DNA of 64,000 bases from an uncultured Candidatus Rokubacteria bacterium (GTDB lineage: Bacteria; Methylomirabilota; Methylomirabilia; Rokubacteriales; DASRDR01), in the NCBI GenBank assembly GCA_963805625.1, contig CAWDVE010000010.1, forward strand, positions 1,792,001 to 1,856,000, given 5' to 3'. The stretch's first letter is position 1. The number at the start of each line of letters is the position of its first letter. The translations under genes and the position numbers were made by a program. Positions 44,665 through 61,796 of this stretch are shown one piece after another. A model generated the notes under the pieces. The model was not told the DNA's origin, made no database searches, and saw nothing but the letters and a program-made list of their open reading frames with translations.

Positions 44665-44693
44665 TTGACAGCCGCGGGACCCCTCCCTAGTAT
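44665..44693 (+). promoter_or_regulatory. Near-consensus sigma70 promoter upstream of fae
   Basis: TTGACA (44665-44670)-17 nt-TAGTAT (44688-44693). Confidence 0.7.
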
Positions 44694-44918
44694 TGGCGCC
44701 ACCCAGCGGTGGTCGACGATGTCCCGGGGATCGAAAACGGTCATAGAAGGCGAAGCTGGCAACATGCCCGGTCGCCGCGGAAGTGCGACACCGGCGAGTC
44801 GTCCTTACCCAGGCCCTGGCCTCAGGAAGGGGGTGCATGCGCGGGCAGCGGGCCGGCGTGCCGGAATCGACGTCCCACACAATGAGTGCGCTCTAGCTAC
44901 GGGAGGGATCGCATAGCT

Positions 44919-45419
44919 ATGGATAGTCACAGCTTCATGGTGGGTGAGTCACTGGTCGGCGAGGGCAACGAGGTCGCTCACATCGATCTGATCATCGGAT
45001 CGAAGAGCGGCCCGGCCGGCGCCACCTTCGCGCAGCGACTGGCCGACCAGACGGCAGGCCACAACGGCCTCCTGGCCGTGCTGGCGCCGAACGTTCCGGC
45101 CAAGCCGGACACGGTCATGTTCAACAAGGTCACGATCAAGGGCGCCGGCCAGGCGGTCCAGATGTTCGGTCCCGCCCAGGCCGCCGTGGCCAAGGCGGTC
45201 GTGGACAGCGTCGCCGACGGCACCATCCCCAAGGCCAGCGCCAACGACCTGTGCGTGATCGTGGGCGTGTTCATCCACTGGCAGGCCAAGGACAACAAGA
45301 AGATCTACGACTACAACTACCGGGCGACCAAGGAATCGATCGCGCGGGCGATGAAGGGTCAGCCCACCGTGGACTCCGTCCTCGCCCAGAAGGACTCAGC
45401 CAAGCACCCCTTCGCGTAG
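44919..45419 (+). CDS. fae: Formaldehyde-activating enzyme (H4MPT hydro-lyase)
   Basis: [25 protein letters not shown]...[19 protein letters not shown]...YNYRATK and HPF motifs. Confidence 0.95.
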
Positions 45420-45513
45420 GCGCGGCGTAACGTCGCCGCGCGGCCGGACGCCCCGCGGTCCCGCTCCCACGGGGCCGCGCGGGTCCCGGCCCGCCCTCGC
45501 CGAGGCAGATCCG

Positions 45514-45630
45514 ATGCGGCCGGAGACGTTCATCCTCATTCCCGGGCGGTCGACCGAGCAGGGCACGAGCGCCGGACCGGAGCACCTCGTCCCGGCCGAG
45601 CGCGTCGCGCTGGCCACGGCGGCGGGCTGA
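45514..45630 (+). pseudogene. 38-codon remnant with an FwdD/FmdD-like N-terminus (probable deletion scar)
   Basis: MRPETFILIPGRSTEQGTS resembles the FwdD start (ILITGRTxxQG), then an unrelated tail ending 8 nt before fhcD. Confidence 0.55.
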
Positions 45631-45638
45631 CCTCCGTC

Positions 45639-46538
45639 ATGGTCCGCGTCAACGGCGTGGAGATCGAGGACACCTTCGCCGAGGCGTTCCGGATGCGCGC
45701 GGCCCGCGCGATCGTGACCGCGGAGACGGCCGGCTGGGCCCGGACGGCCGCCTCGCTGGCGACGGGCTATGCGACATCGGTGATCGGATGCGACGCCGAG
45801 GCGGGCATCGAAGCCGACCTGCCGGCGACCGCGACGCCCGACGGCCGGCCCGGCGTGAGCCTTCTGGTCTTCGGGTTCAACACCGCGGCGCTCGGCAAGG
45901 CGCTGGTCAACCGCGTCGGCCAGTGCGTGATGACCTGCCCCACCACCGCGTGCTTCAACGGGCTCCTGCCCGGGGAGGAAACGGTGAAGGTGGGCGGGCT
46001 CCTCCGCTTCTTCGGAGATGGCCACCAGGCGAGCAAGAAGCTCGATGGGCGGCGATACTGGCGGGTACCGGTGATGGACGGCGAGTTCCTCTGCGAGGAC
46101 ACGTTCGGCGTCCAACGCGCGGTCGCGGGAGGCAATTTCCTGATCCTGGCCACGGATCAGGCCGCGGCGCTCCACGCCGCCGAGGCGGCCGCCCAGGCCA
46201 TCCGCGCGGTGCCCGGAGTGATCCTCCCCTTCCCGGGCGGCATCGTCAGAAGCGGCAGCAAGGTCGGATCGCGCTACAAGACGCTGCGGGCATCGACCAA
46301 CGAGGAGTACTGTCCCACGCTCCGCGGACAGGGCCGGAGCCGGCTGCCGATGAGCGTCCACGCGGTCTACGAGATCGTCATCGACGGTCTCGACGTGGGG
46401 GCCGTGGAGGCCGCCATGCGTGTCGGCGTCCGGGCCGCGTGCGGCCCGGGAGTGGTGCAGATCAGCGCCGGCAACTATGGCGGCAAGCTCGGCCAGTACC
46501 CGCTGCACCTCCACAAGATCCTCGGAACCGCACCATGA
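45639..46538 (+). CDS. fhcD: Formylmethanofuran:H4MPT formyltransferase (Ftr/FhcD)
   Basis: IEDTFAEAF, TSVIGCDAEAG, TPDGRPG, RSGSKVGS, YEIVIDG and SAGNYGGKLG motifs. Confidence 0.95.
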   Translation: MVRVNGVEIEDTFAEAFRMRAARAIVTAETAGWARTAASLATGYATSVIGCDAEAGIEADLPATATPDGRPGVSLLVFGFNTAALGKALVNRVGQCVMTCPTTACFNGLLPGEETVKVGGLLRFFGDGHQASKKLDGRRYWRVPVMDGEFLCEDTFGVQRAVAGGNFLILATDQAAALHAAEAAAQAIRAVPGVILPFPGGIVRSGSKVGSRYKTLRASTNEEYCPTLRGQGRSRLPMSVHAVYEIVIDGLDVGAVEAAMRVGVRAACGPGVVQISAGNYGGKLGQYPLHLHKILGTAP

Positions 46539-47107
46539 TCGTCGAGACGATCGTGACGACGCTGGACGAGGATGGAGAGGCGAACTTCGCGGCCATGGGT
46601 GTGGTCTGGGGCGAGGATCGCCTCGTGATCCGGCCCTACGTCGGCACGCGCACGTTCCGGAACCTCGTCCGTGCGCGCGAGGCCGTCGTCAACGTCACCG
46701 ACGACGTCCTGACTTTCGCGAAGAGCGCGCTCTCACGCGAGCGGTTCCCCGCCCGCCCCGCCGCGCGCGTTCGCGGGGTCATCCTGGCCGACGCGTGCCA
46801 CTGGCGCGAGGTCGCCGTCGAGGACGTATCGTTGCCCGAGTCCCGGCCGCCCGGCGGCGGCCGGGCCGACGTCGCCACGCGCGTGGTGGCGGGTGCGGTG
46901 GGACGGCCGTTCGCCGGGCTGTGCCGCGCCAAGCACGCCGTCGTGGAGGCGAGCATCCTCGCCTCGCGCGCGCGACGGCTGCCGCGGAACGAGGTGCTCG
47001 AGGGACTCGACCGCCTGGACCCGCTGGTGGACAGGACCGGCGGCCCGGCCGAGCGCGAAGCCATGGCGTACATCCGCGCCCACGTCGCGCGGCTGGTCGG
47101 CGACTGA
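46535..47107 (+). CDS. DUF447-family protein (H4MPT-cluster associated)
   Basis: ETIVTT...NFAAMG, RAKHAVVEASILASR and RTGGPAE motifs. Confidence 0.8.
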   Translation: MIVETIVTTLDEDGEANFAAMGVVWGEDRLVIRPYVGTRTFRNLVRAREAVVNVTDDVLTFAKSALSRERFPARPAARVRGVILADACHWREVAVEDVSLPESRPPGGGRADVATRVVAGAVGRPFAGLCRAKHAVVEASILASRARRLPRNEVLEGLDRLDPLVDRTGGPAEREAMAYIRAHVARLVGD

Positions 47108-47124
47108 CACGCCTCACCCCGGAC

Positions 47125-48096
47125 ATGCGCACGATCGTCCAAGCGGGAGCGCGGCTCCATCTGGGGTTCCTCGACCTCAACGGCGCCTGCGGGCGGCGCT
47201 ACGGATCGATCGGCGTCACCCTCGAGCGGCCGCGCTGTACCGTGGAGGCGACCCCAGCCCCGCCCGGCAGGGCGACCGCGACGGGCGATCCCGTGGAGGT
47301 CATCCTCGAGCGTCTCGGCCTCGGAGATGGGACGGTCGGGGTGCGGTTGGTGGAGACGATCCCGGTCCACGCGGGGTTCGGCGCGGGCACCCAGGTCGCC
47401 CTGGCGGTCGCGCTGGCCGCGTCGCGGGCCGCGGGCCGTCCGACGCCGATCCGCGAGCTGGCGCGACAGCTCGGTCGAGGGCAGCGCTCCGGGATCGGCA
47501 TCGCGGCGTTCGAGCGCGGCGGGCTCGTGATCGATGCGGGGCATCCGGCGCAGGAGGACGGCCACGCGGTGGCCGGGGAGCCTGCGGGGCCGGAGCCTCC
47601 CCCGGTGATCTTCCAGCACCCCTTGCCCGACGACTGGCACTTCGTCCTTGCGACCCCACGCGCCGCGCCGGGGCTCTCCGGCCCGAGGGAGGAGCGGGCC
47701 TTCCGGGACCTCCCGCCCATGGACGCCGAGCGGGTGGGCCGGATCTGCCGCCTCACGCTGATGCAGGTCGCGCCGGCCGTGCTCGCCGGCGACATCCGGA
47801 CCTTCGGGGCGGCGATCACCGAGATCCAGGAAGTGGTCGGCGAGTACTTCGCGCCCCATCAGGGCGGCCGTTTCGCCACGGAGACCGGCTGCGCGGTGAC
47901 CGAGCTCGCCCTGGCGCGCGGCGCCCACGGGGTCGGGCAGAGCTCCTGGGGGCCGACGGTGTTCGCGCTGGTGCGAGGCGAGCCCGCCGCGCGCGTCCTG
48001 GCCGACGCGCTCCGCAGCGCGTTCGGAGATCGCCTGGCGTGGGTCGACGTCAGCCTCGCGCGGAACCGAGGCGCGTCGTGCCGGGAGGCGCTGTGA
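47125..48096 (+). CDS. mptG: Beta-ribofuranosylaminobenzene 5'-phosphate synthase (GHMP fold)
   Basis: ARLHLG, HAGFGAGTQ, RGQRSGIG and GQSSWGPT motifs. Confidence 0.9.
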   Translation: MRTIVQAGARLHLGFLDLNGACGRRYGSIGVTLERPRCTVEATPAPPGRATATGDPVEVILERLGLGDGTVGVRLVETIPVHAGFGAGTQVALAVALAASRAAGRPTPIRELARQLGRGQRSGIGIAAFERGGLVIDAGHPAQEDGHAVAGEPAGPEPPPVIFQHPLPDDWHFVLATPRAAPGLSGPREERAFRDLPPMDAERVGRICRLTLMQVAPAVLAGDIRTFGAAITEIQEVVGEYFAPHQGGRFATETGCAVTELALARGAHGVGQSSWGPTVFALVRGEPAARVLADALRSAFGDRLAWVDVSLARNRGASCREAL

Positions 48097-49082
48097 TCTC
48101 GGACCTGGGCCTGAACCGCCGCGCCGCGCGACTGGCCGATGCACTTGCGACCGACGCCCCGTTGCTGGGCGTGACGGTCACGGAGGTCGGGGGCGCACGG
48201 GTGCTCGACTGCGGCGTCCTGGCGGCCGGGGGGCTCGAGGCGGGGCGGCGGCTGGCGGAGATCTGTCTCGCCGGCCTGGCCACCGTGTCGTTCACGAGCG
48301 TCGATCTGGGTGGCCTCTGGCTCCCCGCGGTGGCTGTCACCACCGATCATCCGGTGACGGCCTGCCTGGCCAGCCAGTATGCCGGCTGGGCCATCGATCC
48401 GCCGGGATACTTCGCCATGGGCTCCGGACCGGCCCGCAGCGTCGCCCGGGTGGAGCGGGAGCTTTACGAGCGAATCGGCTACGCCGAGGCCGGAGACACC
48501 GCGGTGCTCGTGCTGGAGGGGCGGACGCTTCCGGACGAGAGAGTGGTGCAGTTCGTCGCCGACAAGTGCCGAGTCCAGCCGGAGGGCCTGCGGCTCCTCA
48601 TCGCCCCGACCGCCAGCATCGCCGGGTGCGTCCAGGTGGCCGCGCGCTCGGTCGAGACCGGGCTCCACAAGATGCTGGAGCTCGGGTTCGACGTCCGCAG
48701 CGTGCGGAGCGGGGCGGGTGTGTGTCCGCTGGCGCCGGTGGCGAAGAACGACCTTCGCGCCATCGGGTGGACGAACGACTGCATCCTCTACGGCACCCGC
48801 GCCTACTTCGCCGTCCACGCCGACGACGCGTTGGTCGCGGCGATGGTCGAGCGGCTGCCGGCCGCCACGTCGTCGGACTATGGCACCTCCTTCTACGAGA
48901 TCTTCAAGCGCGCCGGCAATCAATTCTACAAGATCGACCGGATGCTCTTCAGCCCGGCGGAGGTGGTCGTCAACAACCTCGACTCCGGGCGCGTCTTTCG
49001 CGCCGGCCGCCTCGACCCCGGCGTGCTGATGCGATCGCTGGGTGTTGCGGGGGTTGGCGGCCCTGGCGGGGGCGCGGCGTGA
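48093..49082 (+). CDS. mch: Methenyl-H4MPT cyclohydrolase
   Basis: CLASQYAGW, AMGSGPAR, QVAARSVETGLHK, TNDCILYG and FYKIDRMLFSPA motifs. Confidence 0.95.
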   Translation: MISDLGLNRRAARLADALATDAPLLGVTVTEVGGARVLDCGVLAAGGLEAGRRLAEICLAGLATVSFTSVDLGGLWLPAVAVTTDHPVTACLASQYAGWAIDPPGYFAMGSGPARSVARVERELYERIGYAEAGDTAVLVLEGRTLPDERVVQFVADKCRVQPEGLRLLIAPTASIAGCVQVAARSVETGLHKMLELGFDVRSVRSGAGVCPLAPVAKNDLRAIGWTNDCILYGTRAYFAVHADDALVAAMVERLPAATSSDYGTSFYEIFKRAGNQFYKIDRMLFSPAEVVVNNLDSGRVFRAGRLDPGVLMRSLGVAGVGGPGGGAA

Positions 49083-49987
49083 AGGTCGCCATCCTGGGCT
49101 CACGGTCGGGGTGGCACGAGGTCCGGCTGGGGCGCGCGCTCCGCGAGCGGGGCGTGGAGCCGGTGGTGGCGCCCATCACCGGCCTCGCGGCCGCCGTGGC
49201 CGCCATGCCTGGAGGAGACCGGCTCGCCGCCGGCGGCGTTCGGCTCGACGATTGTGGCGCAGTGATCGTGCGCGCGATCCCCGGCGGGTCGCTCGAGCAG
49301 GTAATCTTCCGGCTCGACGCGCTCCACCGCCTGACCCGGCTCGGGGTCGCCGTCATCAACTCGCCCCGGTGCGTCGAGCGCACCGTGGACAAGTACTTCA
49401 CCTCGACGCTCCTCGAGGAGGCAGGGTTGCCGAGCCCCCGCACCCGGGTGTGCGAGCGGCTCGACGACGCCCTGGCCGCGTTCGAGGCGCTGGGGGGCGA
49501 CGTGGTGGTCAAGCCGCTCTTCGGCTCCGAGGGACGGGGCATCGTGCGGGTGTCCGACCCCGATCTCGCCTATCGCACCTGCCGGGCCCTGGAGCTGACG
49601 CGCTCGGTGTTCTATCTTCAGGAGTTCGTACCGCACGGGGGGCGCGACATCCGGGCGTTCATCGTCGGGGGCCGGCTGGTGGCCGCCATGACCCGCTGGG
49701 CCGCCGGCTGGAAGACCAACGTGTCGCAGGGCGCCCGGACGGAGCCCGTCGCCCTGTCCGGCGAGCTCGAGCGCCTGGGCGTCCAGGCGGCGGGTTTGCT
49801 CGAGGCGGACTACGCGGGCGTGGACCTCCTGTGCGCGGACGACGGACGCGTACTCGTGATCGAGGTCAACGGGATACCGGGATGGCGCGGACTCCAGCAG
49901 ACAACCGACGTCGACGTCGCGGGGCTGATCGCGGAGCACGCGATCGCGATCGTCGAGCGCGGCCTCCCGGTCGGGACCTCGCCGTGA
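49079..49987 (+). CDS. RimK-family alpha-L-glutamate ligase (Orf5/MptN-like)
   Basis: GSLEQVIFRLD, KPLFGSEGRG, WKTNVSQG and IEVNGIPGW motifs. Confidence 0.9.
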   Translation: MKVAILGSRSGWHEVRLGRALRERGVEPVVAPITGLAAAVAAMPGGDRLAAGGVRLDDCGAVIVRAIPGGSLEQVIFRLDALHRLTRLGVAVINSPRCVERTVDKYFTSTLLEEAGLPSPRTRVCERLDDALAAFEALGGDVVVKPLFGSEGRGIVRVSDPDLAYRTCRALELTRSVFYLQEFVPHGGRDIRAFIVGGRLVAAMTRWAAGWKTNVSQGARTEPVALSGELERLGVQAAGLLEADYAGVDLLCADDGRVLVIEVNGIPGWRGLQQTTDVDVAGLIAEHAIAIVERGLPVGTSP

Positions 49988-51066
49988 GCCCCGCCGCGGC
50001 CCCGGCCGGAACCTCCTCGGCGGCCCGCATCGCGGCTGCCGCAACGCTCGCCTGCACGCTCGAGGCCTGCGCGGAGAAGGTCGGCAACGTCACGCCGACC
50101 CGCGGCTTCGACGACGCGCGCTTCGACGACTTCGCGCTCAGCGCGCAGGCGCTCGGAGCCGCGGTCGCCATCGCCGCGCCGGGGCAGGTGGGCCGGACGG
50201 TGTACCGGGCGGTAGCGGCCACCGCGGGCGTGGCCCCGTCCAACACCAACCTCGGCATGGCGCTCCTGTTCGCGCCGCTCGCGGCGGCCGCGCGGGCGCG
50301 CCGAGGGACGGGGCTCAGGCACCGGCTCGCGCTCGTGCTGCGCGGACTGAGCGTCGACGACGCGCGCTGGGCCTACCGGGCGATCCGGCTCGCCCGCCCG
50401 GGCGGGCTCGGGCCGAGCGACGAGGCTCCCGTCGCCCAGCATCCCTCGATCACGCTGCTCGAGGCCATGCGGCTCGCCGCGCGGCGCGACACCGTGGCGG
50501 CGGAGTATGTCGGTGGCTTCGCGGTGACGTTCGACCTCGGGCTCGCTAGGCTGCGCCGGGCGCTCCGCCATGGCCTGTCCCTGCTCGACGCCATCGCACA
50601 GGCGCATCTCGAGCTGATGGCCCGGGTGCCGGACACGCTGATCGCGCGGAAGGCCGGTGCCGCGGCTGCGGCTGCGGTGGCCGCGCGAGCAGGCGCCGTG
50701 GTGCGGGCAGGCGGGGTCGTCACGCCGAGGGGACTGGCCGCCGCGCGGCGGCTCGACCGCGACCTCCGGCGCCACGGCAACCGCCTCAACCCGGGGACCT
50801 CGGCAGATCTCATCGCCGCCGCCCTGTTCGTCTGGCTCCTGGAGACCCCAGGCCGACGGCGGCTCGTCGCAGGGACGCGACGCCAGCCCCAGATCGCTGC
50901 CGTCCCCCCCAGACCGCCAGGGGCTGCCACAGGCCGCCACAGGCCGAAGGCCGCCAGAGCAACCCCGTCCGATCAACCCCGTCCGATCAAGGCCGTCCCA
51001 TCACGGTCGTCCCGTCACGGCCGTCCCGTCGGCCGAAGGTCCGAGGCGGCGCGGCGAGATCAATGA
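49984..51066 (+). CDS. CitG-family protein (Orf7-like) with low-complexity C-terminal extension
   Basis: KVGNV, NTNLG, PDTLIARKAG and NPGTSADL motifs. Confidence 0.88.
   Translation: MSPAAAPAGTSSAARIAAAATLACTLEACAEKVGNVTPTRGFDDARFDDFALSAQALGAAVAIAAPGQVGRTVYRAVAATAGVAPSNTNLGMALLFAPLAAAARARRGTGLRHRLALVLRGLSVDDARWAYRAIRLARPGGLGPSDEAPVAQHPSITLLEAMRLAARRDTVAAEYVGGFAVTFDLGLARLRRALRHGLSLLDAIAQAHLELMARVPDTLIARKAGAAAAAAVAARAGAVVRAGGVVTPRGLAAARRLDRDLRRHGNRLNPGTSADLIAAALFVWLLETPGRRRLVAGTRRQPQIAAVPPRPPGAATGRHRPKAARATPSDQPRPIKAVPSRSSRHGRPVGRRSEAARRDQ
50960..51029. repeat. Five degenerate 14-bp tandem units
   Basis: CAACCCCGTCCGAT x2, CAAGGCCGTCCCAT, CACGGTCGTCCCGT, CACGGCCGTCCCGT. Confidence 0.8.
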
Positions 51067-51578
51067 GCCAGTTCCGAGTGCGGATCGAGAAGGACTACAC
51101 GGTGTTCTGCGCCGGGCACTTCATCACTTACGACGGGCACGAATGCGAGCCGCTTCATGGCCACAACTACCGGGCGGCGGCGGCGCTCGAGGGCCCGCTC
51201 GACGAGAACGCGTACGTGTTCGACTTCACCCGGCTCAAGCGCGCGCTCAGGGCCATCGTCAACCGCCTCGACCACCGGATGCTGCTGCCGGCGAGGAGCG
51301 CGCTCATCCAGGTCACCCAATCGGGCGCCGAAGTCCAGGCAATCTACCGCGACAAGCGATACGTGTTTCCCTCGAGCGACGTGGTGCTCCTGCCCGTCCC
51401 CAACACCACCGCGGAGATGCTGGCGTGGTGGATCGCCCAGGAGCTCAAGCAGGACCTGGGGACGCTTCCGCCCGGCGTCACGGGGCTCGAGGTCGAGGTG
51501 GACGAGTCGTCCGGCCAGCGAGCCTTCTATCGGGAGACGCTCGGCGAGGGCGGTAACGAAGGGCCGGGACGCTCGTGA
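51063..51578 (+). CDS. 6-pyruvoyl-tetrahydropterin synthase family (COG0720), CExxHGH hybrid motif
   Basis: FCAGHF, CEPLHGHNY, LDHRML and TTAEMLA motifs. Confidence 0.88.
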   Translation: MSQFRVRIEKDYTVFCAGHFITYDGHECEPLHGHNYRAAAALEGPLDENAYVFDFTRLKRALRAIVNRLDHRMLLPARSALIQVTQSGAEVQAIYRDKRYVFPSSDVVLLPVPNTTAEMLAWWIAQELKQDLGTLPPGVTGLEVEVDESSGQRAFYRETLGEGGNEGPGRS

Positions 51579-53035
51579 CGTGGCCATCGGTCGTCTACCT
51601 CGGGCTCGGCTCGAACGTGGGTGACCGTCAGAGCAACCTGATCGAGGCGCTCCAGAGCCTCCGGGCGCACGTCTTCATCGAGCAGATCTCGCCGGTCTAC
51701 GAGACCGAGCCGGCGTACGTGACCGACCAGCCCCGCTTTCTGAACCTCGCGGTGAAGGGTGTGACCTCGCTCGAGCCCGCCGAGCTCCTGACCGTGGCCA
51801 AGCGGATCGAGTCCCGGATGGGGCGGCGCCCCGGCGAGCGATACGGCCCGCGGCCGATCGACATCGACATCCTCTTCTACGGCGACCGCGTGATCCGCAC
51901 CGAGACGCTCGAGGTGCCGCACCCGCGCGTTGCCGAGCGCGGCTTCGTCCTCGTCCCGCTTCACGACATCGCCCCGGGCCTCCGGCACCCGGAGCTCGGA
52001 CGCACGGTCGCCGAGCTCCTCGCCTCCCTCGGGGAGACGCGCGGCATCGTCCGGGTCGAGCGGGGCCTGACGGCGCGGCTCGAGCGTGACGTGCAGGAGG
52101 AGTCTCCGTCCGCCCGCCTCAGGCTCGACCAGACGGGGGTGACGGGTCTCCACCGCATCATCCGTCTCTCCGAGGGCGGCGGTCTCTTCTACGCGACGCT
52201 CGATCTCTTCGTCGAGCTGCCGGCCGACCAGAAGGGCGCCCACATGTCGCGCTTCAGCGACACCGTGGAGGAGGTGCTCGAGGACCTCGGCGAGTTCACG
52301 GCCCCGATGATCGAGACGCTCGCCGAGCGCATCGCGCGGGCCCTGACCGTCGGGCACCGGGCCGAGCGCGCGGACGTGGAGATCCGGGCCCAGTTCCCGC
52401 TCGAGCGCCGCGCGCCGATCTCCGGCAAGCCCTCGCAGGAGCTGTACACGCTGATCGGCATCGCCGCCGCCAACCCCCGCCGCGCGGTCCAGCTGATCGG
52501 CGTGGAGGCGGAGGGGATGATGGCGTGCCCCTGCGCCCAGGAGATGGTCCGCGCGCAGGCGGAAGCCCGACTGCTCGAGCACGGCCTGACGCCGGAGCTC
52601 GCCGAGCAGGTGCTGTCGCTAGTCCCGGTCGCGACCCACAATCAGCGTGGGCGCGGCCGCCTCCTGGTCGGCGCCGACCGCGCGCTCCGCGCCGAGGACC
52701 TGGTCGAGATCGTCGAGGGCTCGATGAGCTCCGAGAACTACGACCTCCTGAAGCGGCCGGACGAGCTCTTCGTCGTGGAGAAGGCGCACCGCCATCCTCG
52801 CTTCGTCGAGGACACCGTTCGCGAGATGCTCCGGAGCTTCGTGAACACCTACCCCGAGCTGCCGGACGACGCCTACGTCCACGCCCGGCAGGTGAACATG
52901 GAGACGATCCACAAGCACGATGTCTTCGCCCAGCGCGGCGGGCAGCTCGGCGAGATTCGGGGCGAGCTCCTCGACGGCAAGCCGCGCGGCAGCACCCCGC
53001 TCCAGGCGTGGCTCTCGGCCCGGCTCGAGGGATGA
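51575..53035 (+). CDS. Fusion of FolK (HPPK) and a FolE2/MptA-family GTP cyclohydrolase
   Basis: N-terminal YLGLGSNVGDR, GPRPIDIDIL, VPHPR; C-terminal KGAHMSRF, MACPC, THNQR, LLKRPDE, PRFVED, ETIHKH. Confidence 0.9.
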   Translation: MTWPSVVYLGLGSNVGDRQSNLIEALQSLRAHVFIEQISPVYETEPAYVTDQPRFLNLAVKGVTSLEPAELLTVAKRIESRMGRRPGERYGPRPIDIDILFYGDRVIRTETLEVPHPRVAERGFVLVPLHDIAPGLRHPELGRTVAELLASLGETRGIVRVERGLTARLERDVQEESPSARLRLDQTGVTGLHRIIRLSEGGGLFYATLDLFVELPADQKGAHMSRFSDTVEEVLEDLGEFTAPMIETLAERIARALTVGHRAERADVEIRAQFPLERRAPISGKPSQELYTLIGIAAANPRRAVQLIGVEAEGMMACPCAQEMVRAQAEARLLEHGLTPELAEQVLSLVPVATHNQRGRGRLLVGADRALRAEDLVEIVEGSMSSENYDLLKRPDELFVVEKAHRHPRFVEDTVREMLRSFVNTYPELPDDAYVHARQVNMETIHKHDVFAQRGGQLGEIRGELLDGKPRGSTPLQAWLSARLEG

Positions 53036-53062
53036 CTCGGGGGGGGATCCGGAACCTTCACA

Positions 53063-53815: not shown

Positions 53816-53904
53816 CGCGGAGCGGAGGATAGCACGCCCACAGGCCGAAGGCCGTCCGATCAGACCCGTTCAATCAAGTCGCATCGTGGATGCAGGCTAG
53901 CCCG

Positions 53905-54933
53905 ATGAGACTGGAGCGCCGGGTCCTCGGCTGGGACGTGGGCGGCGCCTACGTCAAGGCGGCCGTCGTCGAGGCGGAAGGCGGCCGCCGCGCGGTGCAG
54001 ACGGCGAGCCGCCCGTTCGAGATCTGGCGGGACAAGCTCGCCCTGCCGGACGTCCTGCGGGCGCTCGCCGCCGAGCTCCCCTCTCCGGAGTCGGTCGCGG
54101 TGACGATGACCGCGGAGCTGTCGGATGTGTTCCGGACCAAGCGCGAGGGCGTGGGCTTCGTGCTTGACGCCGTGGAGACCGTGTCGCGGGCACCGGTCCG
54201 CGTCTTCACGACCGCCGGCGAGTTCGTCGACCCCGCCACCGCCCGCGCGAGCCCCCTCGACGCCGCCGCCTCCAACTGGGTCGCCACCGCCATGCTGGTC
54301 GGGCGGTTCGTCCCCGACGCGCTGCTGGTGGACATCGGATCCACTACCACCGATGTGATCCCGGTGACGGGGGGCCGCGTGGCGGCCCTCGGCCGGACCG
54401 ATCCCGAGCGGCTGCTCGCCGGGGAGCTGGTCTACACAGGGGTGCTCCGCACCAACGTCGCTGCCATCGTCCGCCGGGTGCCGCTCCGGGGCGGCGAATG
54501 CCCCGTCGCCTCCGAGCTGTTCGCGGTCAGCGGCGACGTTCACGTGCTGCTCGGGTCGCTCGCGCCGGACGACTACACCTGCCCGACGCCCGACGGCCGG
54601 CCGCCCACGCCGGAATTCGCCGGCGAGCGGCTCGCGCGTGTCGTGTGCGCCGACGGGGAGATGCTCGGCGCCGGAGAGATCCGCGTCATCGCGGCAGCGG
54701 TCGCGGAGGCCCAGGTCGAGGAGATCGCCGCCGCGCTCGACCGCGTCTCGCGCCGGCTCGTCCGGCCGGCGCCCGTGATCACGACCGGCCTCGGCGCCTT
54801 CCTGGCCCGCCGGGCTGCCGAGCGCGCCGGGATGCCAGTCAAGGATCTCGCCGACGTTCTCGAGGTCGAGGTCGGCACGGTCGCGCCGGCCGTCGCGGTG
54901 GCCTGGCTCCTGCTCGACGGGGTCAGACTTTGA
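53905..54933 (+). CDS. Hydantoinase/oxoprolinase-like H4MPT-linked protein (Orf9/MfnF-like)
   Basis: GWDVGGA, TMTAELSDVF..KREGV, AASNW, DIGSTTTD and LVYTGVLRT motifs. Confidence 0.88.
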   Translation: MRLERRVLGWDVGGAYVKAAVVEAEGGRRAVQTASRPFEIWRDKLALPDVLRALAAELPSPESVAVTMTAELSDVFRTKREGVGFVLDAVETVSRAPVRVFTTAGEFVDPATARASPLDAAASNWVATAMLVGRFVPDALLVDIGSTTTDVIPVTGGRVAALGRTDPERLLAGELVYTGVLRTNVAAIVRRVPLRGGECPVASELFAVSGDVHVLLGSLAPDDYTCPTPDGRPPTPEFAGERLARVVCADGEMLGAGEIRVIAAAVAEAQVEEIAAALDRVSRRLVRPAPVITTGLGAFLARRAAERAGMPVKDLADVLEVEVGTVAPAVAVAWLLLDGVRL

Positions 54934-54992
54934 CTTCCAAACTTTTGCGCGCGGCGCCGGCTCGAATTGTTGGGAAGTCAAAGTCTGACCCC
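54919..54992. repeat. Inverted-repeat (REP/MITE-like) element, copy 3
   Basis: GGGGTCAGACTTTGACTTCC (54919-54938) ... GGAAGTCAAAGTCTGACCCC (54973-54992), 20/20 complementary. Confidence 0.9.
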
Positions 54993-55607
54993 AGGCCGGA
55001 CTGGGTGATCAAGGTCGGCGGGAGCCTCGGCGCGCGCCCCGCCCAGCTCCGTCGCCTGTTGGAGACTTTGGCAGCGGCTGCTCGGCGACACTGGCTCGTC
55101 GTGGTGCCGGGGGGCGGGAGCTTCGCCGACGAGGTGCGCCGCGCCGACCGTCGCTTCGCGCTCGGCGACTCGGCCGCCCACTGGATGGCCATCCTCGCCA
55201 TGGACCAGTACGCCTACCTTCTCGCGCGGCTCGCCCCCGGGGCGGCTCTCGTGCGGAGCCGGCGCGAGCTCTCCCCCGGCCGCCTCAACGTGCTGGCGCC
55301 GTCGGCCTGGCTCCTCCGCGCCGATCCGCTCCCCCACTCCTGGGACGTCACCTCAGATTCGATCGCGGCCTGGGTCGCGCACGCTCTTCGCGTGCGGCGG
55401 CTCATGCTCGTGAAGCACGTGGACGGCTTCATCGGACCAGACCGCGGGCCGTGGAGAATGCCCGAGCACGTGCGGCGGATCGCGCTCGAGGCGTTCTCGG
55501 GTGTGGTGGACCCGTACTTCGCGTGGGCGCTCGACCCCGCCATCGGGTGCTGGCTCGCTCGCGGGCACCTGCCCCACCGGATCACGCGCCTGATCGCGAC
55601 CGGCTGA
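54930..55607 (+). CDS. Amino-acid-kinase-family protein (Orf21/MfnE-like)
   Basis: VIKVGGS, VPGGGSFADEVR, AHWMAILAM and SWDVTSDSIAA motifs; start is TTG 54930 or the GTG of VIKVGGS. Confidence 0.85.
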   Translation: MTSKLLRAAPARIVGKSKSDPRPDWVIKVGGSLGARPAQLRRLLETLAAAARRHWLVVVPGGGSFADEVRRADRRFALGDSAAHWMAILAMDQYAYLLARLAPGAALVRSRRELSPGRLNVLAPSAWLLRADPLPHSWDVTSDSIAAWVAHALRVRRLMLVKHVDGFIGPDRGPWRMPEHVRRIALEAFSGVVDPYFAWALDPAIGCWLARGHLPHRITRLIATG

Positions 55608-55744: not shown

Positions 55745-58255
55745 CTACTCGCTCGCGGCGTTGCTGCGCTGGGCTTGCATCAGCTTCTTCTCGTCCTCCG
55801 GTGAGAGCTTCGGCCGATCGATGCTGAGCATCACCTTGTTGAGCTTGCCCGTGAACCGGAATGGTATCTGGTAGTCCTGGTCGTTCACCGGCGTGCCCGT
55901 GTCGGCGCCCACGTCGAGGTTTTCGTCCCACTGTAGGATCAGCGGGATCGTCTTTTCCATCTTCTGGGTGGCGACGGCCTGACCGTCCACCTTGAGCACT
56001 CCGGTGCCGCTGCGGCCGATGCCGCTCAGGTTGTTGAACGCAAGGGTACCAATCCCCAGGCCGTCGTACTTGAAGTCGAACTCGAGCGTGTGCATACCCG
56101 GCGTGAGCTCCGGCCCCTCCCAGCGGATCCGCTGCAGGTCGACCAGATTCCAGAGGAACACCGGCTTGTTCTTCAGCACGTAGAAGCCGTAGCCAGCGAA
56201 GCGGCCCCCCTGGGTGATGAGCATGCCCTCGGCGCCGCCCTGCGGAATCTCGACCTCGGCCTTGAAGTTATACGACGAGTTGAGGATGCTCGGCGCGTCG
56301 CCGTTCGGTGTGCCCGTGAACTCGCGGGTCCAGGTGAACACGTTGCGGCCGGCGGTGATGCTCGGGCGCGGCGTGACGAGTCGGCTCGCGATCGAGGCGT
56401 CGAGCGGCATGACCTGGTACTTCTTTGCCTCGGCCCAGAAGAGCTTCTCCATCTCCTTGACCTTGGCGGGGTTCTTGGCCGCGACGTCGTTCGACTGGGT
56501 CCAGTCCTTCCCGAGGTCGTACAGCTCCCACGTCGCCTTGGACGGATTGAGATTGGCCGGGCCGAACGTCACCCACGGCGGGCGCGTCACCTTGGCGCTG
56601 GCGATCCAGCCGTCGTGGTAGATCGCGTAGTTACCGAACATCTCGAAGTACTGGGTCTTGTGCTTCGACGGCGCCTTCTCGTTGGGCTTGTCGAACGTGT
56701 AGAGCATGCTGACGCCCTCGATCGGGCTTTGCTTGATCCCGTCGACGACCTTGGGCTGGCGGATCCCAGCCGCCTCGAGGATCGTCGGCACGACGTCAAT
56801 CACGTGGTGAAACTGGTTGCGGATGCCGCCCTTGTCCTTGATCACCTTCGGCCAGGAGATCGCCATGCCCTGGCGAATGCCTCCGAAGTGAGATGAGATC
56901 TGCTTCGTCCAGGAGAACGGCGAGTCGAGCGCCCACGACCACGGCACCGCCATGTGATTGTACGTGCGGTCGGAGCCCCAGGCGTCGTAGAAGTTCTTGA
57001 GCTGCACTTCGACCGGCACCTCGACGCCGTTGAACATCGCGACCTCGTTCGGCGTGCCCACCAGCGTGCCCTCGGCGCTGCCGCCGTTGTCGCCGCTGAT
57101 GTAGATGATCAGCGTGTTCTCGAGCTTGCCCAAATCCTCGATCGCCTGGATCACCCGGCCGATCTCGTGATCCGTGTAGGCGAGGTACGCCGCGTACACA
57201 TCGACCTGGCGGAGGAACATCTTCTTTTCATCGGCCGACAGCCCGTCCCAGCGCTTCAGCAGGTTGTCCGGCCACGCCGTGAGCTTGGCGGTCTGCGGGA
57301 TCACGCCGAGCTTCTTCTGGTTCTCGAAGATCTGCTCGCGGAGCGCGTTCCACCCCTTGTCGAAGAGATGCATGTCGCTGATCTTCTTGATCCATTCCGG
57401 GGTTGGGTGATGTGGCGCATGCGTGCCGCCGGGCGCGTACTTCACGAAGAACGGCTGCTCCGGCGTGAGGGTGTTGATGCGTTGCATGTACGCGATGGCT
57501 TCGTCCGCCATCGCCGTCGTCAGGTTGTAGCCCGGATTGCCCGAGAACGGGTAGATCGATGTCGTGTTGCGGACGAGGTTCGCCGGCTGCCACTGGTTGG
57601 TGTCCCCGCCCATGAACCCGTAGAAATACTCGAAGCCCATCCCGATGGGCCACTGGTCGAACGGCCCGTCCTGGCTCGCTTGAAAGGCCGGGGTGTTGTG
57701 GTTCTTCCCGAACCACGACGTCCGGTAGCCGTTGTCCTTCAGGATCTTGCCGATCGTCGCCTTGTCTCTAGTGATGATGCTGTCGTAGCCCGGGAAGCCC
57801 GTCGCCTGCTCCGAGATCACACCGAAGCCGACGGAGTGATGGTTGCGCCCGGTGATGAGCGCCGCGCGGGTGGGCGAGCAGAGGGCCGTGGAGTGGAAGT
57901 TCGTGTAGCGGAGGCCGTTGTTGGCGATCCGGTCGAGCGCCGGCGTGGGGATCACGCCACCGAACGTGCTCGGGGCCCCGAAGCCGACGTCGTCCGTGAT
58001 GATGAGCAGCACGTTCGGCGCGTTCTTGGGCGGCATTATGCGCGGTGCCCAGTAGGGCTTCGACTGCGCGGCGTTGCGCTCGATCCTGCCGCCGAACTTC
58101 GCCGGCGGCGCCGGAATCTGGTCGCCCTGGATCGTCGTCGTCGCGCTGGGGGAGCCGGGCACCCCCGTCACATTCTGGGCGAAGCTCGGCTCGCCGAGGA
58201 GTCCGACGGACGCGGCCAATGCCGCGCCGATCACGATTCGCATGCTTGTTCTCAT
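55745..58255 (-). CDS. Secreted arylsulfatase (Cys-type, formylglycine-dependent)
   Basis: Signal peptide, PNVLLIITDDVG, LCSPTRAALITGR, FGKNH and SGDNG motifs. Confidence 0.92.
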   Translation of the reverse strand: MRTSMRIVIGAALAASVGLLGEPSFAQNVTGVPGSPSATTTIQGDQIPAPPAKFGGRIERNAAQSKPYWAPRIMPPKNAPNVLLIITDDVGFGAPSTFGGVIPTPALDRIANNGLRYTNFHSTALCSPTRAALITGRNHHSVGFGVISEQATGFPGYDSIITRDKATIGKILKDNGYRTSWFGKNHNTPAFQASQDGPFDQWPIGMGFEYFYGFMGGDTNQWQPANLVRNTTSIYPFSGNPGYNLTTAMADEAIAYMQRINTLTPEQPFFVKYAPGGTHAPHHPTPEWIKKISDMHLFDKGWNALREQIFENQKKLGVIPQTAKLTAWPDNLLKRWDGLSADEKKMFLRQVDVYAAYLAYTDHEIGRVIQAIEDLGKLENTLIIYISGDNGGSAEGTLVGTPNEVAMFNGVEVPVEVQLKNFYDAWGSDRTYNHMAVPWSWALDSPFSWTKQISSHFGGIRQGMAISWPKVIKDKGGIRNQFHHVIDVVPTILEAAGIRQPKVVDGIKQSPIEGVSMLYTFDKPNEKAPSKHKTQYFEMFGNYAIYHDGWIASAKVTRPPWVTFGPANLNPSKATWELYDLGKDWTQSNDVAAKNPAKVKEMEKLFWAEAKKYQVMPLDASIASRLVTPRPSITAGRNVFTWTREFTGTPNGDAPSILNSSYNFKAEVEIPQGGAEGMLITQGGRFAGYGFYVLKNKPVFLWNLVDLQRIRWEGPELTPGMHTLEFDFKYDGLGIGTLAFNNLSGIGRSGTGVLKVDGQAVATQKMEKTIPLILQWDENLDVGADTGTPVNDQDYQIPFRFTGKLNKVMLSIDRPKLSPEDEKKLMQAQRSNAASE

Positions 58256-58363
58256 TTCCCCTCCCGATCTTGGACGGTGCGGCTGCGTTCTCTTCTCGAT
58301 CTTCACATGCACGTACCGCCTCCTCGCGAACACCGGCGCCACGGCCAGCCCGCGCCCTGGCGA

Positions 58364-59080
58364 CTAGATTCGATCGGCCGTCTGGCGGCCTCCGCACGCC
58401 CGGACGAGGCCGCGGACGCGCTCGGCGTCGACGCGCCCGCCGACCCGGTCCCCGACGCAGGCGGCGCCCCGCATACCCACCAGGTCGGGACCGATCGGCG
58501 CCAGGCGCACGAGGTCCTCGGCCCGGAGCGAGCCGGCCAGAGCCGACAAGAGACCGCGGGCGCGGCACGCCGCGACGAACGCCGCCAGCTCGGCCTCGCC
58601 CAGCCACTGGAACAGTCCACGCCCGTCCTTCACCGCCGTGTCGATGAGACAGCCTTGGGCGCCTGCGGCGACCGCGAGCGCGGGCAGGTCGAGGGGGTGC
58701 GGCGATCCGGCGCGGGTGAAGTCGGCGAACCCGGCCACCACGACGTGGACGTTCGCCGGAACGCTCGCGCGAGCCGCGCGGAAGCTCGCGGTCGCCGTCG
58801 CGAGCGAGGTGTCGCGGAGCCCAAGCTTCACGAAGGCCGCGCCGCTCGCCGCCGCCGTGCCGGTCAGCGCGGCGGCCATCGCCGGCGTGAAGGGCCCGTC
58901 GCCGAGCGCGGCGCTCACCGGCAGATGAGCCGGCGTGGCCTCCCGCACCGCGCGCACGACGTGCGCAGCGGCTTCGCCGAGGGCGCCCCGCGAGGGATCC
59001 TTGACGTCGATCACGTCAGCGCCGGCGGCAGCCGCGATCCGGGCCTCCCCGGCGTCCACAACGCTGACCAGAAGGCGCAT
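58364..59080 (-). CDS. mfnB: (5-formylfuran-3-yl)methyl phosphate synthase (DUF556/Orf22)
   Basis: LLVSV, DVIDVKDPSRGALG, VSAALGD, IDTAVKDG, LAGSL and GMRGAAC motifs. Confidence 0.88.
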   Translation of the reverse strand: MRLLVSVVDAGEARIAAAAGADVIDVKDPSRGALGEAAAHVVRAVREATPAHLPVSAALGDGPFTPAMAAALTGTAAASGAAFVKLGLRDTSLATATASFRAARASVPANVHVVVAGFADFTRAGSPHPLDLPALAVAAGAQGCLIDTAVKDGRGLFQWLGEAELAAFVAACRARGLLSALAGSLRAEDLVRLAPIGPDLVGMRGAACVGDRVGGRVDAERVRGLVRACGGRQTADRI

Positions 59081-59103
59081 AAGAGTCGCATTATAGTAGT
59101 CGG

Positions 59104-59895
59104 GTGGAGCCGCGACAACCGAGCGCGCCCGTTGCCCTGAAGCGTCTCCGGGGCCAGGTGGCGGTCGTCACCGGCGCGAGCCGGGGGATCGGGCGCGCGA
59201 TCGCCCTCACCCTCGCGCGGGAGGGGGCGCGCGTGGTCGTCAACTACGCGCGCTCGCGCGAGCGCGGCGAGGCGGTCGTGGCCGAGATCCTGGCGGGCGG
59301 CGGAGAGGCCCTGGCCGTCCGCGCGGACGTGTCGCGAGCGGAGGAGGTCGACCGGCTTCTCGAATCGACGCTCGAGAAGTTCGGACGCTGCCACGCCTGG
59401 GTCAACAACGCGGGCGCAGACATCCTGACGGGGGACGCCCGAACCTGGCCGGCCGAGCGCCAGTGGGACGAGGTGATGGGCGTCGACCTCAAGGGCACCT
59501 GGATCTGCTCCCGGGCGGCGGCGGAGGTGATGCGCCGCGACGGCGGCGGCGTCATCGTGAACCTCTCGTGGGACCATGTGAGCCATGGCATGGGAAGCGC
59601 GACCGCCGCCATCTACGCCGCCGCGAAGGGCGGCGTGGCGGCGATGAGCCGGTGCCTGGCGCGGGAGTTCGCGCCCGCGGTGCGGGTCAACGTCGTGGCG
59701 CCCGGGTGGATCCGGACCCAGTGGCTCGACGGCGCCGGCGCCGAGATCCAGCAGCGCGTCACGGAGGCCACCCCGCTCGCGCGGCCCGGCACGCCCGACG
59801 ACGTCGCCGGAGCGGTCGCGTTCCTGGCTTCCGCGGAGGCGTCGTTCATCACCGGGGAGACGCTGCTCGTGAACGGTGGAGTGGTCATGGGCTGA
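59104..59895 (+). CDS. Short-chain dehydrogenase/reductase (possible pterin reductase)
   Basis: TGASRGIG, NNAG, YAAAK and VNVVAPG motifs. Confidence 0.85.
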   Translation: MEPRQPSAPVALKRLRGQVAVVTGASRGIGRAIALTLAREGARVVVNYARSRERGEAVVAEILAGGGEALAVRADVSRAEEVDRLLESTLEKFGRCHAWVNNAGADILTGDARTWPAERQWDEVMGVDLKGTWICSRAAAEVMRRDGGGVIVNLSWDHVSHGMGSATAAIYAAAKGGVAAMSRCLAREFAPAVRVNVVAPGWIRTQWLDGAGAEIQQRVTEATPLARPGTPDDVAGAVAFLASAEASFITGETLLVNGGVVMG

Positions 59896-59984
59896 GCCAC
59901 CCCGGCAACGTCCGTCGCGGGCGAGCGGTCGCCACCACGGTCGATCGACAGTCGGCGGAGCGCGGACTCCGCAGGAGGCGCACG

Positions 59985-60365
59985 ATGGCTGAAGAGAAGA
60001 AGCTCCCCGTCCTTCCGGACGACGAGATCGAGCGGCGGCTCACGGGCGAGCTGCCGGGCTGGTGGTACGAGGGCCGCTGGATCCGCCGGAAGTACAACAC
60101 CGACGGCTGGCTCACGACCCTCGCGCTGGTCAACACGATCGGCTTCCTGGCCGAGGCCGCCTATCATCACCCCGACCTCGAGGTGACGTGGGGCAAGGTG
60201 TGGGTGAAGCTTCGCACCCACTCGAGCAACGGCGTCACCGAGCGCGACTTCGCCCTGGCCAGGCGGATTGAGGACGCGGTGCTGTGGCGACCGGGCGCGG
60301 GCTCCCACATGGAGGGCACACCCAACAAGTGGGTGAAGGGCGGCAGTCCCGATCGGCCCGCCTGA
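59985..60365 (+). CDS. phhB: Pterin-4a-carbinolamine dehydratase
   Basis: AEAAYHHPDL, LRTHS..GVTERDF; AGGAGG RBS. Confidence 0.88.
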   Translation: MAEEKKLPVLPDDEIERRLTGELPGWWYEGRWIRRKYNTDGWLTTLALVNTIGFLAEAAYHHPDLEVTWGKVWVKLRTHSSNGVTERDFALARRIEDAVLWRPGAGSHMEGTPNKWVKGGSPDRPA

Positions 60366-60413
60366 GCGGGCCGCCCCCGCCGCGCCCCCACACCCGAGGA
60401 TACCCGGGTCTCC

Positions 60414-61796
60414 GTGCCCAAGACCCTCTTCGTCACCGGCAAGCTCGCCGAGCCGGCGCTCCGGGCAACGCTCGAGCGCATGGCGCCGGAGTTCCCGTAC
60501 GAGGTGGCGGTGCTCCGCATCACGGTCGCCGCCCTCATGACCACCTCGTGGATCGCCCGGCACCTCACAGAGGTCTCCGGCTGCGAGCGCATCGTCATCC
60601 CGGGCCTGTGCGAGGGCGACGTGCGGGCGATCGAGGACCGCTGGGGCGTCAGGACCGAGAAGGGGCCCGCCGACCTCCGGGACCTGCCCGAGCACTTCGG
60701 ACAGGCGGCGCTCCGCGAGGCGTACGGCGCCCACGACATCCGGATCTTCGCCGAAATCAACAACGTGCCATACCTCTCCCGCGAGGAGGTGGTGCGCCTG
60801 GCGGAGTACTACCGGCGGAGCGGCGCCGACGTGGTCGACCTCGGCTGCTCCCTCGACCGGAAGTTCGACGACGCGGGCGCCGTCGTGGGCCTCCTCAAGA
60901 GCCAGGGCTTCACCCTCAGCATCGACACGCTCGATCCGGGCGAGATCGTCGCCGCCGACCGGGCCGGCGTCGACTACGTGCTGAGCCTCAACGGCCAGAA
61001 CCTGAGCGTGGCCGCCCGACTCCGGGCCACGCCGATCCTCATCCCGGACTCCCCGGCGGAGCTCGACACGCTGGACCGGAGCATCGCGCACCTCGAGACG
61101 CTCGAGCGTCCCTACATCGTCGACCCGGTGATCGAGCCCGTCGGGTTCGGGTTCGCGGCGGCCCTCGACCGGTACGTCCAGGTCCGGGCGCGCCACCCCG
61201 CGGTGGAGATCCTGATGGGAATCGGCAACATCACGGAGCTGACCGACGCTGACACGACCGGGATAAACGCGCTCCTGATCGGATTCTGCCAGGAGCTCGG
61301 CATCCGCCACGTCCTCACCACCGAAGTGATCCCGTGGGCGCGCGGCTCGGTGCGAGAGGTCGACGTGGCGCGCCGTCTCATGTACGCCGCGCGCCAGCGC
61401 GGCGTCCTCCCGAAGCACGTCGACGACCGGCTGCTCACCGTCAAGGACGCGCGCCCCAAGTACTACACCGAGGCGGAGCTCCGCGAGCTGCACCGGGCGA
61501 TCACGGACCCGAACTTCCGCATCGCGACCACCCGCGACGCCATCTGCGTGTTCAACGACCGGCTGTTCGTCAGCAGCACCGACATCCAGGCGCTCTTCGA
61601 GCAGCTCGGCGTCGAGGATCCCGCCCATGCGTTCTACCTCGGCAAGGAGCTGATGAAGGCGCGCCTGGCACTGCTCCTCGGGAAAACCTACGTGCAGGAG
61701 CAGCCGCTCCGCTGGGGCTACCTGACGCCGGAGCGCGAGGACACGCCCCACCGCCGGGTGCGGATCGAGGGGCGCCGAAAGCCGCCGGATACCTAG
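60414..61796 (+). CDS. Dihydropteroate-synthase-related protein (Orf20-like)
   Basis: VTGKLAE, KGPADLRDLP, GADVVDLG, GNITELTDAD and HAFYLGKEL...YVQEQPL motifs. Confidence 0.88.
   Translation: MPKTLFVTGKLAEPALRATLERMAPEFPYEVAVLRITVAALMTTSWIARHLTEVSGCERIVIPGLCEGDVRAIEDRWGVRTEKGPADLRDLPEHFGQAALREAYGAHDIRIFAEINNVPYLSREEVVRLAEYYRRSGADVVDLGCSLDRKFDDAGAVVGLLKSQGFTLSIDTLDPGEIVAADRAGVDYVLSLNGQNLSVAARLRATPILIPDSPAELDTLDRSIAHLETLERPYIVDPVIEPVGFGFAAALDRYVQVRARHPAVEILMGIGNITELTDADTTGINALLIGFCQELGIRHVLTTEVIPWARGSVREVDVARRLMYAARQRGVLPKHVDDRLLTVKDARPKYYTEAELRELHRAITDPNFRIATTRDAICVFNDRLFVSSTDIQALFEQLGVEDPAHAFYLGKELMKARLALLLGKTYVQEQPLRWGYLTPEREDTPHRRVRIEGRRKPPDT

Follow-up and report, generated by a model that had tools for sequence, protein, structure and literature searches.

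Gene clusters for the tetrahydromethanopterin (H4MPT)/methylofuran pathway have been described in M. extorquens and on plasmids of Azoarcus (pAZKH), Azospirillum and Paraburkholderia, and a bacterial selenocysteine (Sec)-type fmdD-B-A-C operon has already been published from planctomycete P2 (Kim et al. 2016, accessible part of PMC4807772). Here, we analyse a cluster of this kind from an uncultured Candidatus Rokubacteria bacterium (genome G000), which lies in a stretch of 64,000 nt on its contig C10 (G000:C10:1792001-1856000; hereafter the window, to whose positions plain coordinates refer, while C5, C14 and the like denote contigs of the same genome). With the proteobacterial clusters the locus shares fae, ftr, mptG, mtd, orfY, mch, orf5, 7, 9, 17, 19-22 and a pterin-4a-carbinolamine dehydratase (PCD) gene; unlike them, it has an MtdA-like Mtd, a redox-type Fwd with FwdD instead of Fhc and a FolK-MptA fusion of its own, and shows no AfpA or DHFR-family match and no xoxF. 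Judged from sequence, the system is a variant of a known pathway, in which a Sec-type Fwd stands in for a deleted cysteine (Cys)-type copy and an SDR (short-chain dehydrogenase/reductase) is a well supported candidate for dihydromethanopterin (H2MPT) reductase. We regard it as probable that the genome encodes a split, formaldehyde-oxidising methanopterin/methylofuran pathway that is ended by a Sec-Fwd encoded on C14 and uses this SDR for H2MPT reduction. A literature search, mostly of titles and abstracts and with supplements excluded, returned no SDR assigned to H2MPT reduction and no such Rokubacteria cluster.

A split H4MPT/methylofuran pathway

A sequence-only reading of the window had described the cluster as having no intact Fhc/Fwd or Mtd, with fwd/fhc, mtd and orfY missing. 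None of these genes is indeed inside the window, but the claim fails for the genome as a whole. The cluster is interrupted by inserted peptide-type ABC transporter genes (62132..64000, + strand, continuing past the window end) and resumes with mtd (C10:1858499-1859353), DUF1464 (C10:1859405-1860499) and an ATP-grasp gene (C10:1860487-1861611), these three genes being located 2.5-5.6 kb beyond the end of the window. On C14 the genome also has a fwdD-B-A-C operon, which is intact (C14:163661-168119, minus strand). The anomaly is therefore an effect of the window edge and of a split operon, and the puzzle of the missing genes is itself ordinary: with mtd and a full fwdDBAC set elsewhere in the genome, and a layout common to relatives, this is the ordinary split cluster that the reading itself had named as its refutation.

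The Mtd match (Mpt_N, 109.7 bits) falls at C10:1858547, 2.5 kb past the window end. Mtd aligns over its full length to MtdA with 302 bits, versus 37% over 100 aa to Azoarcus MtdB, and by this alignment is closer to MtdA than to MtdB. The best plasmid matches of the ATP-grasp protein include the gene between mtdB and mch, which is the orfY position, and the gene was therefore assigned to the OrfY type. According to the accessible part of PMC8141765, OrfY/MyfA and Orf5/MyfB attach glutamates to methylofuran, and the methylofuran of M. extorquens depends on orf17; in the window, a RimK/MptN-like ligase of the orf5/MyfB type (49079..49987, +) and a HisA-like orf17 (53063..53815, -) were both recognised by NCBIfam. 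An Orf1/MfnD-type ATP-grasp was not found in this 99.9%-complete genome; it is full length in two of 14 genomes (G025, G134) and in none of ten relatives of this genus, and Methylobacterium likewise lacks it (PMC5020050).

Fae, Mtd, Mch and Ftr are all encoded in the genome, the cofactor genes mptG, orf5, 7, 9, 17, 19-22 and orfY are all present, and the 17 core cluster genes in the window without exception read as open frames. We have little doubt that the pathway is complete in this genome. Going by the family assignments, Fae would couple formaldehyde to dephospho-H4MPT, Mtd and then Mch would oxidise the one-carbon (C1) unit to formyl-H4MPT, Ftr would transfer the formyl group to methylofuran, FwdA would hydrolyse formyl-methylofuran, and the Mo/W-Sec FwdB/FwdD would oxidise the formate to CO2. 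The remaining cluster genes would build both carriers, the last reduction of dihydromethanopterin being performed by the SDR.

The predicted Sec-type fwdD-B-A-C operon

On C14, FwdA, FwdB and FwdC exceed their cut-offs (TIGR03121, TIGR03129 and TIGR03122, respectively) downstream of FwdD, which is recognised by a PF01568 match and scores 76 bits with NF042908, under the cut-off of 175. FwdB scores 369 bits against FwdB of M. wolfeii (5T5I) versus 57 bits against FhcB of M. extorquens (6S6Y). In the alignment to 5T5I_B, the Fe-S cysteines, U116-H117 and R289-G-H291 are all kept; we take the 4Fe-4S cysteines, the Cys/Sec-His pair and the Arg-x-His to have catalytic roles. In FwdA, every metal-site motif of 5T5I_A is kept. 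A hydrolytic, M. extorquens-like Fhc identity for the operon was rejected on the retention of both FwdD and the metal-ligand residue. The operon resembles archaeal FwdABCD (M. wolfeii 5T5I; Sec form FwuB, M. kandleri) in its four core subunits, metal-site motifs and Sec/Cys ligand, and differs from it by the lack of an adjacent FwdF/G, by a bacterial-type SECIS directly after the UGA, and by a UGA-containing small open reading frame (ORF) between fwdD and fwdB. Gene order and Sec FwdB are those of the planctomycete P2 operon, from which the present case differs in that the host genus belongs to Rokubacteria and the operon substitutes for a Cys copy deleted from the cluster; the small ORF is unmentioned in the accessible part of PMC4807772, where organisms holding Sec and Cys forms together are noted. 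A 2026 review (accessible part of PMC13188914) names FwdB a selenoprotein and treats it in the context of methanogens.

The fwdB gene contains a single TGA, which aligns with the Cys codon preceding the His in the archaeal proteins. Among the best 80 of 389 GTDB matches to FwdB, whose titles are mainly planctomycetes and acidobacteria, the ligand codon is TGA in 79 and TGC in one. A SECIS-like hairpin lies directly 3' of the UGA, with seven pairs that hold in 75-80 of the 80 sequences and an invariant AGTT loop; its base changes are one-sided (G-C/G-U), giving weak covariation, and in this genome one of the pairs reads G-G. In addition, selA, selD and the tRNA-Sec gene (selC) were found. A point that weighs against decoding is that selB (L166:8589-10501, C21) lacks one nucleotide of a C/G run when compared with a 98%-identical relative and is thereby split; this is likely an assembly error. 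In 16 of 17 other genomes selB scores over the cut-off, and the relatives read through. Taken together, the UGA of fwdB is very probably decoded as Sec. We also observed one in-frame TGA in SelD (G000:C10:162221-163141), which is probably Sec as well. Ordinary gene callers cut the Sec-FwdB in two, so that a selenium-dependent, probably CO2-forming enzyme of common soil bacteria is easily overlooked.

Fwd would be expected to form CO2, and we hold this prediction with good confidence. A different outcome has to be considered, in which the route ends in formate: FwdA would hydrolyse formyl-methylofuran, formate would leave the complex, as it does in Fhc, and would be oxidised by a separate formate dehydrogenase (FDH) that is linked to NAD. 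No FwdF/G-type ferredoxin accompanies the fwd operon, a CxxCxxCxxxC ORF being found in only three of the 80 loci whose neighbourhood was examined, and this absence of a conserved electron-transfer partner beside fwdDBAC counts against CO2 formation and fits the formate end. The latter also fits with a module of NuoEF plus FdhA on C5 and with the FDH-like genes that adjoin the operon in G003. However, the operon retains FwdD together with the Fe-S cysteines and the ligand position, and the UGA and its hairpin are conserved across several phyla, which would be costly if the site were inactive; an ending in formate is therefore unlikely. Genes similar to mobA and fdhD are present in the genome. 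In G003:C12 (L060), genes for FdhD and an aldehyde:ferredoxin oxidoreductase flank the Sec-fwd operon, as do a MobA-like gene and a divergent FDH/NuoEF module, and this flank is a possible electron outlet. Meanwhile, 3' of fwdC on C14 (L027:5721-10981) we observed genes for a class I aldolase, a PPi-dependent PFK, a histidine phosphatase and a dimethylformamidase-beta-like protein; the fba/pfk neighbours are conserved in close kin only.

The TGA form of FwdB occurs in eight of the 41 genomes searched (this one and seven others of the genus), with 89-97% identity. This distribution also bears on whether C14 belongs to the same organism. The assembly has a contamination of 6.26%, and the first ~140 kb of C10, at ~50% GC, looks foreign, as would be expected if C14 had come from another organism in the bin and the host of the window had no Fwd; however, C14 has 68.7% GC, matching the rest of the genome, and the same operon recurs in those seven relatives, which makes a foreign origin of C14 highly improbable. 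The Rokubacteria-like host proposed from the window sequence fits as well, since, of the five nearest FwdB records that carry a name, four are titled Rokubacteria (91-97% identity). The C14 FwdB shares 79-87% identity with proteins of other phyla, compared with only 63% for the Cys copy found in its own genus, and it therefore represents a separate lineage; in the FwdB tree, the Sec and Cys clades stand apart (branch 0.43, support 0.99), with the root as a long branch.

The small ORF between fwdD and fwdB comprises 74 codons with an internal TGA (C14:167510-167734, minus strand; L027:15511-15735). Its frame was matched in 75 of the 80 loci with enough upstream sequence, with TGA in every case, and third-position variation is seen upstream of the TGA. 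The hairpin of this ORF has six pairs that hold in 49-74 of the 75 loci, two-sided changes included. These patterns suggest that it is likely a second selenopeptide of the operon. If the TGA is read through, the ORF has a stop overlapping the ATG of fwdB in 19 of 75 loci, this genome included, and one might speculate that the small ORF couples FwdB translation to selenium.

Deletion of the in-cluster Cys-type fwd genes

The cluster layout was mapped in 13 related clusters. G011, G019, G025 and G134 have the ancestral order, fae-fwdD-fwdB-fwdA-ftr-DUF447-mptG-fwdC-mch, and the FwdB ligand residue is Cys; the fwd copies of G019 carry frame breaks and those of G025 lie on two contigs. The in-cluster copy of G004 is rearranged and frameshifted, and the contig of G003 ends at mch. 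In seven further genomes (G002, G005, G008, G009, G012, G013 and G014), as in the present one, the fwd genes are missing between fae and ftr. What is left in the window is a scar (45514..45630, +), which joins about 21 first codons of a Cys-type fwdD in frame to about 17 last codons of fwdA. It was overlooked in the sequence-only reading. The scar region is 87% identical over 161 nt to the fae-fwdD region of G011, and its right half is 74% identical over 69 nt to the fwdA end of G004 (E 0.006). In addition, the GTG-ATC start of mch corresponds to the start of the deleted fwdC in G011. The fwdD/fwdA scar is spanned by an independent contig from another study (X8 record 25) and the mch/fwdC junction by contigs from other studies (X1 record 7, X7 record 22); because both junctions are crossed in this way, these are genuine deletions. 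This cluster has thus lost the Cys-type fwd genes that relatives retain. The genus may have replaced its in-cluster Cys Fwd by the Sec-type Fwd. Junction sequences vary among the relatives, and a single event and multiple events both fit; deep nodes of the cluster tree are unstable.

These losses could also be read as signs of a pathway decaying in this lineage. The xoxF module 5' of fae, kept in G004, G008, G019 and G134, is gone here, a transporter region of ~4.4 kb is deleted at 44396/44398, the cluster has lost its own fwd genes, the selB sequence is frameshifted as assembled, and no fwd matches came from G005 and G012. Against this, the core genes in the window are open, Mch is found in all nine members of the genus that were searched, and the Sec-FwdB is well conserved across the genus, so general decay appears improbable, more so than an ending in formate. 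The suggestion that the terminal step is decaying therefore applies to the in-cluster fwd copy only, since a full fwdDBAC exists elsewhere in the genome, whereas the relatives G005 and G012 may fit that description. Likewise, a route finished by non-standard enzymes, as once proposed, stands in another sense only, that is, by a Sec-type Fwd instead of Fhc and probably by an SDR for DmrA/AfpA. In G005 (98% complete) and G012 (88%), a full H4MPT cluster was observed, with neither fwdA nor fwdB found; these may be true cases of a pathway with no terminal step, and they count against a necessary tie to Fwd, showing that the cluster can persist without it. Just upstream of the cluster (44037-44550), a small conserved ORF now runs into the tail of a cNMP-DASS transporter gene, of which relatives have intact copies; this is a remnant of the deletion at 44396/44398.

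A WD-motif SDR as candidate dihydromethanopterin reductase

The bacterial H2MPT reductases named in the accessible part of PMC6193120 belong to the DmrA and AfpA/DmrB lineages only, and afp was 'not recognized' in planctomycete genomes (PMC5020050); the accessible part of PMC11264602 adds nothing on the SDR question. DmrA and AfpA, first noted as missing from the window, were not found in the genome either. The DHFR family (PF00186) gave no match in a search that covered neither the DmrA sequence itself nor PF01872/RibD_C-type reductases; three AfpA queries also gave no match, and the two PF02441 matches in the genome are UbiX and CoaBC.

The candidate is an SDR gene (59140..59895, +; the start may be 59104) whose product has an invariant W144-D145 at the place where the catalytic Ser is usual in SDRs. 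The Asp near this position presumably resembles the arrangement in PTR1. Orthologs with E<=1e-62 occur in exactly the 13 Mch-positive of 145 Rokubacteriales genomes (Mch counted from PF02289; 18 candidates scored per genome). In a sample of 221 genomes from the phylum of G151, a Gemmataceae record, the SDR was found in all 25 Mch-positive genomes; eight weaker matches came from Mch-negative genomes, and the five inspected are ordinary SDRs without WD. A broader profile was applied to 401 planctomycete genomes (six candidates scored per genome), with the SDR found in 60 of 64 Mch-positive versus none of 337 Mch-negative genomes; 17 of these 60 were part of the profile, and among the Mch-positive genomes new to this sample the count is 36 of 40.

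Of 25 planctomycete loci, 12 have H4MPT genes, mostly PCD and orf20, within 1.5 kb of the SDR, and so has one acidobacterial cluster. In four of five proteobacterial plasmid clusters, afpA directly precedes orf20, and the SDR sits in the same slot here; the WD-SDR was found in none of the five, with ~40 kb read of each, and this comparison is one of five plasmid clusters only. AfpA, in turn, was found in none of the five SDR-bearing planctomycete and acidobacterial genomes examined. With DmrA (DHFR fold) and the flavoproteins AfpA/DmrB and DmrX, the SDR has in common the predicted reaction, the slot before orf20 and the restriction to H4MPT users, and it differs from them in its SDR fold and in the invariant Trp-Asp at the usual catalytic-Ser region. 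The catalytic Tyr is replaced by Phe in most planctomycete members with the Asp invariant, which would suit reduction of C=N over C=O.

A number of observations weigh against this assignment. The SDR model (pLDDT 90) is nearest to FabG, not to PTR1/FolM, and FabG comes first by both sequence and fold; a fold search, a PDB profile and the Atlas returned generic SDR/FabG only. The SDR scores 165 bits versus the cut-off of 288 of the pteridine-reductase model. The Mch-positive genomes G376, G410 and G517 have no SDR ortholog, and G482 has a contig-end fragment; the SDR copies of G019 and G151 each contain one TGA. Two WD-SDRs of 52% identity have radical-SAM and glycosyltransferase genes as neighbours, and no H4MPT gene is closer to them than 6 kb. 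Moreover, kinship inflates the SDR-Mch co-occurrence counts, since related genomes are not independent. Membership in PTR1/FolM, which shares the SDR fold, was rejected on the score under the family cut-off and on FabG as the nearest fold, ahead of PTR1/FolM.

The SDR could instead have another job in the pathway, with H2MPT reduced by an unrecognised enzyme. Methanopterin synthesis includes a reductive opening of the ribose side chain for which no enzyme is known to be assigned, and the SDR might act there or in general dihydropterin reduction. Such a role would agree with the FabG-like fold of the predicted model, with the lack of a PTR1-type Arg in the glycine-rich loop, with the occurrence of WD-SDRs outside H4MPT contexts and with the search scope, which did not extend to RibD_C-type reductases. 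In contrast, the SDR holds the position of afpA ahead of orf20, and the afpA-bearing plasmid clusters, which need the same side chain, are without it; the Tyr to Phe replacement in most planctomycete members, with the Asp invariant, would again favour C=N reduction. Another job is possible but the less likely of the two readings, and we rather favour the SDR, on context and distribution, as the candidate that performs the final H2MPT reduction in place of DmrA or AfpA/DmrB. The wider proposal, to which we give slightly better than even chances, is that the WD-SDR is a third bacterial class of H2MPT reductase and the first of SDR fold, in Planctomycetota, Rokubacteriales and Acidobacteriota without DmrA and AfpA/DmrB, accompanied in this genus by the Cys to Sec swap in Fwd and by a second selenopeptide that could couple FwdB translation to selenium. 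If true, the role would correct a widespread FabG label, and the completion of planctomycete H4MPT becomes a one-gene complementation question.

The two WD-SDRs outside H4MPT contexts (L204 and L205) adjoin GT2, PCMT and a radical SAM gene that is spore-photoproduct-lyase-like, which makes this a second conserved setting. When metagenomes were scanned with the SDR, none of 80 loci had H4MPT genes. The record of G376 (L145) is titled Alcaligenaceae, yet it drew the same phylum sample as a Gemmataceae genome; its title probably misleads.

Possible formaldehyde source and host distribution

The genome search for xoxF that the sequence-only reading had proposed gave no PQQ methanol dehydrogenase (XoxF/MxaF) match in this genome; such a dehydrogenase scored over the cut-off in four of 18 genomes searched. 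In G004, G008 and G019, genes similar to xoxF-J-G lie just 5' of fae, where G134 has a PQQ dehydrogenase. RuBisCO and PRK gave no matches. As no methanol dehydrogenase was found, formaldehyde probably comes from intracellular demethylations, and therefore the pathway would serve detoxification or energy scavenging, not methanol methylotrophy; a C1/formaldehyde role, as first read from the window, is reasonable in our judgement. It counts against this picture that the source itself can be named as a candidate only, on sequence grounds. An operon for a flavin oxidoreductase, ETF-alpha, a CCG/Fe-S protein and ETF-beta was observed at L337:7370-13249 (C10). Its products are 40-44% like those of a proteobacterial plasmid operon adjoining glycine-betaine transport genes, and it is possibly a demethylase supplying formaldehyde. 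A second fae paralog (L177:9353-9829, C17; 31% identity) has no H4MPT genes among the neighbours scanned.

Mch is found in 13 of 145 Rokubacteriales genomes. In the accessible part of PMC5103831, the Rokubacteria of that study were reported to have none of the three formaldehyde routes; the low count in the order agrees with this, and the nine of nine in the genus differs. The cluster thus shows the H4MPT route within one Rokubacteria genus.

Gene content of the window

All genes listed in the sequence-only reading are in place and in frame, with strong Pfam or NCBIfam family scores. A putative sigma70-like promoter (TTGACA-17-TAGTAT; 44665..44693, +) lies 5' of fae, the gene for formaldehyde-activating enzyme (44919..45419, +; TIGR03126, 252 bits). 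Downstream of the scar are the formyltransferase gene ftr/fhcD (45639..46538, +; TIGR03119, 436 bits), a DUF447 gene (46535..47107, +; Pfam), which we take to be of the orf19 type, mptG for beta-RFAP synthase (47125..48096, +; TIGR00144, 173 bits) and mch (48093..49082, +; TIGR03120, 393 bits). After orf5 come a CitG-like gene (49984..51066, +; Pfam), presumably of the orf7 type, a PTPS-family gene (51063..51578, +; Pfam), which probably serves a pterin-supply step, and the fusion of FolK (HPPK) with the MptA/FolE2 GTP cyclohydrolase (51575..53035, +; TIGR01498, 137 bits; TIGR00294, 284 bits). Beyond the minus-strand orf17 lie an orf9/MfnF-like gene (53890..54933, +; TIGR03123, 347 bits), an orf21/MfnE-like kinase gene (54930..55607, +; NCBIfam) and mfnB (orf22; 58364..59080, -; PF04476, 221 bits). 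The SDR gene is followed by the PCD gene (59985..60365, +; Pfam and NCBIfam) and by orf20/DUF6513, which is dihydropteroate-synthase-like (60414..61796, +; Pfam and NCBIfam).

Between orf21 and mfnB, an arylsulfatase gene (55745..58243, -; Pfam) is inserted within the cluster span; it is not a core gene, most relatives are without it at this place, and it was passed over in the earlier reading. Finally, the first part of the contig (C10:1-~143000) is a block of ~140 kb with ~50% GC on a contig with ~69% GC; it is probably foreign or chimeric sequence and contains a frameshifted ftr at 61857 that is 42-45% like that of the cluster.

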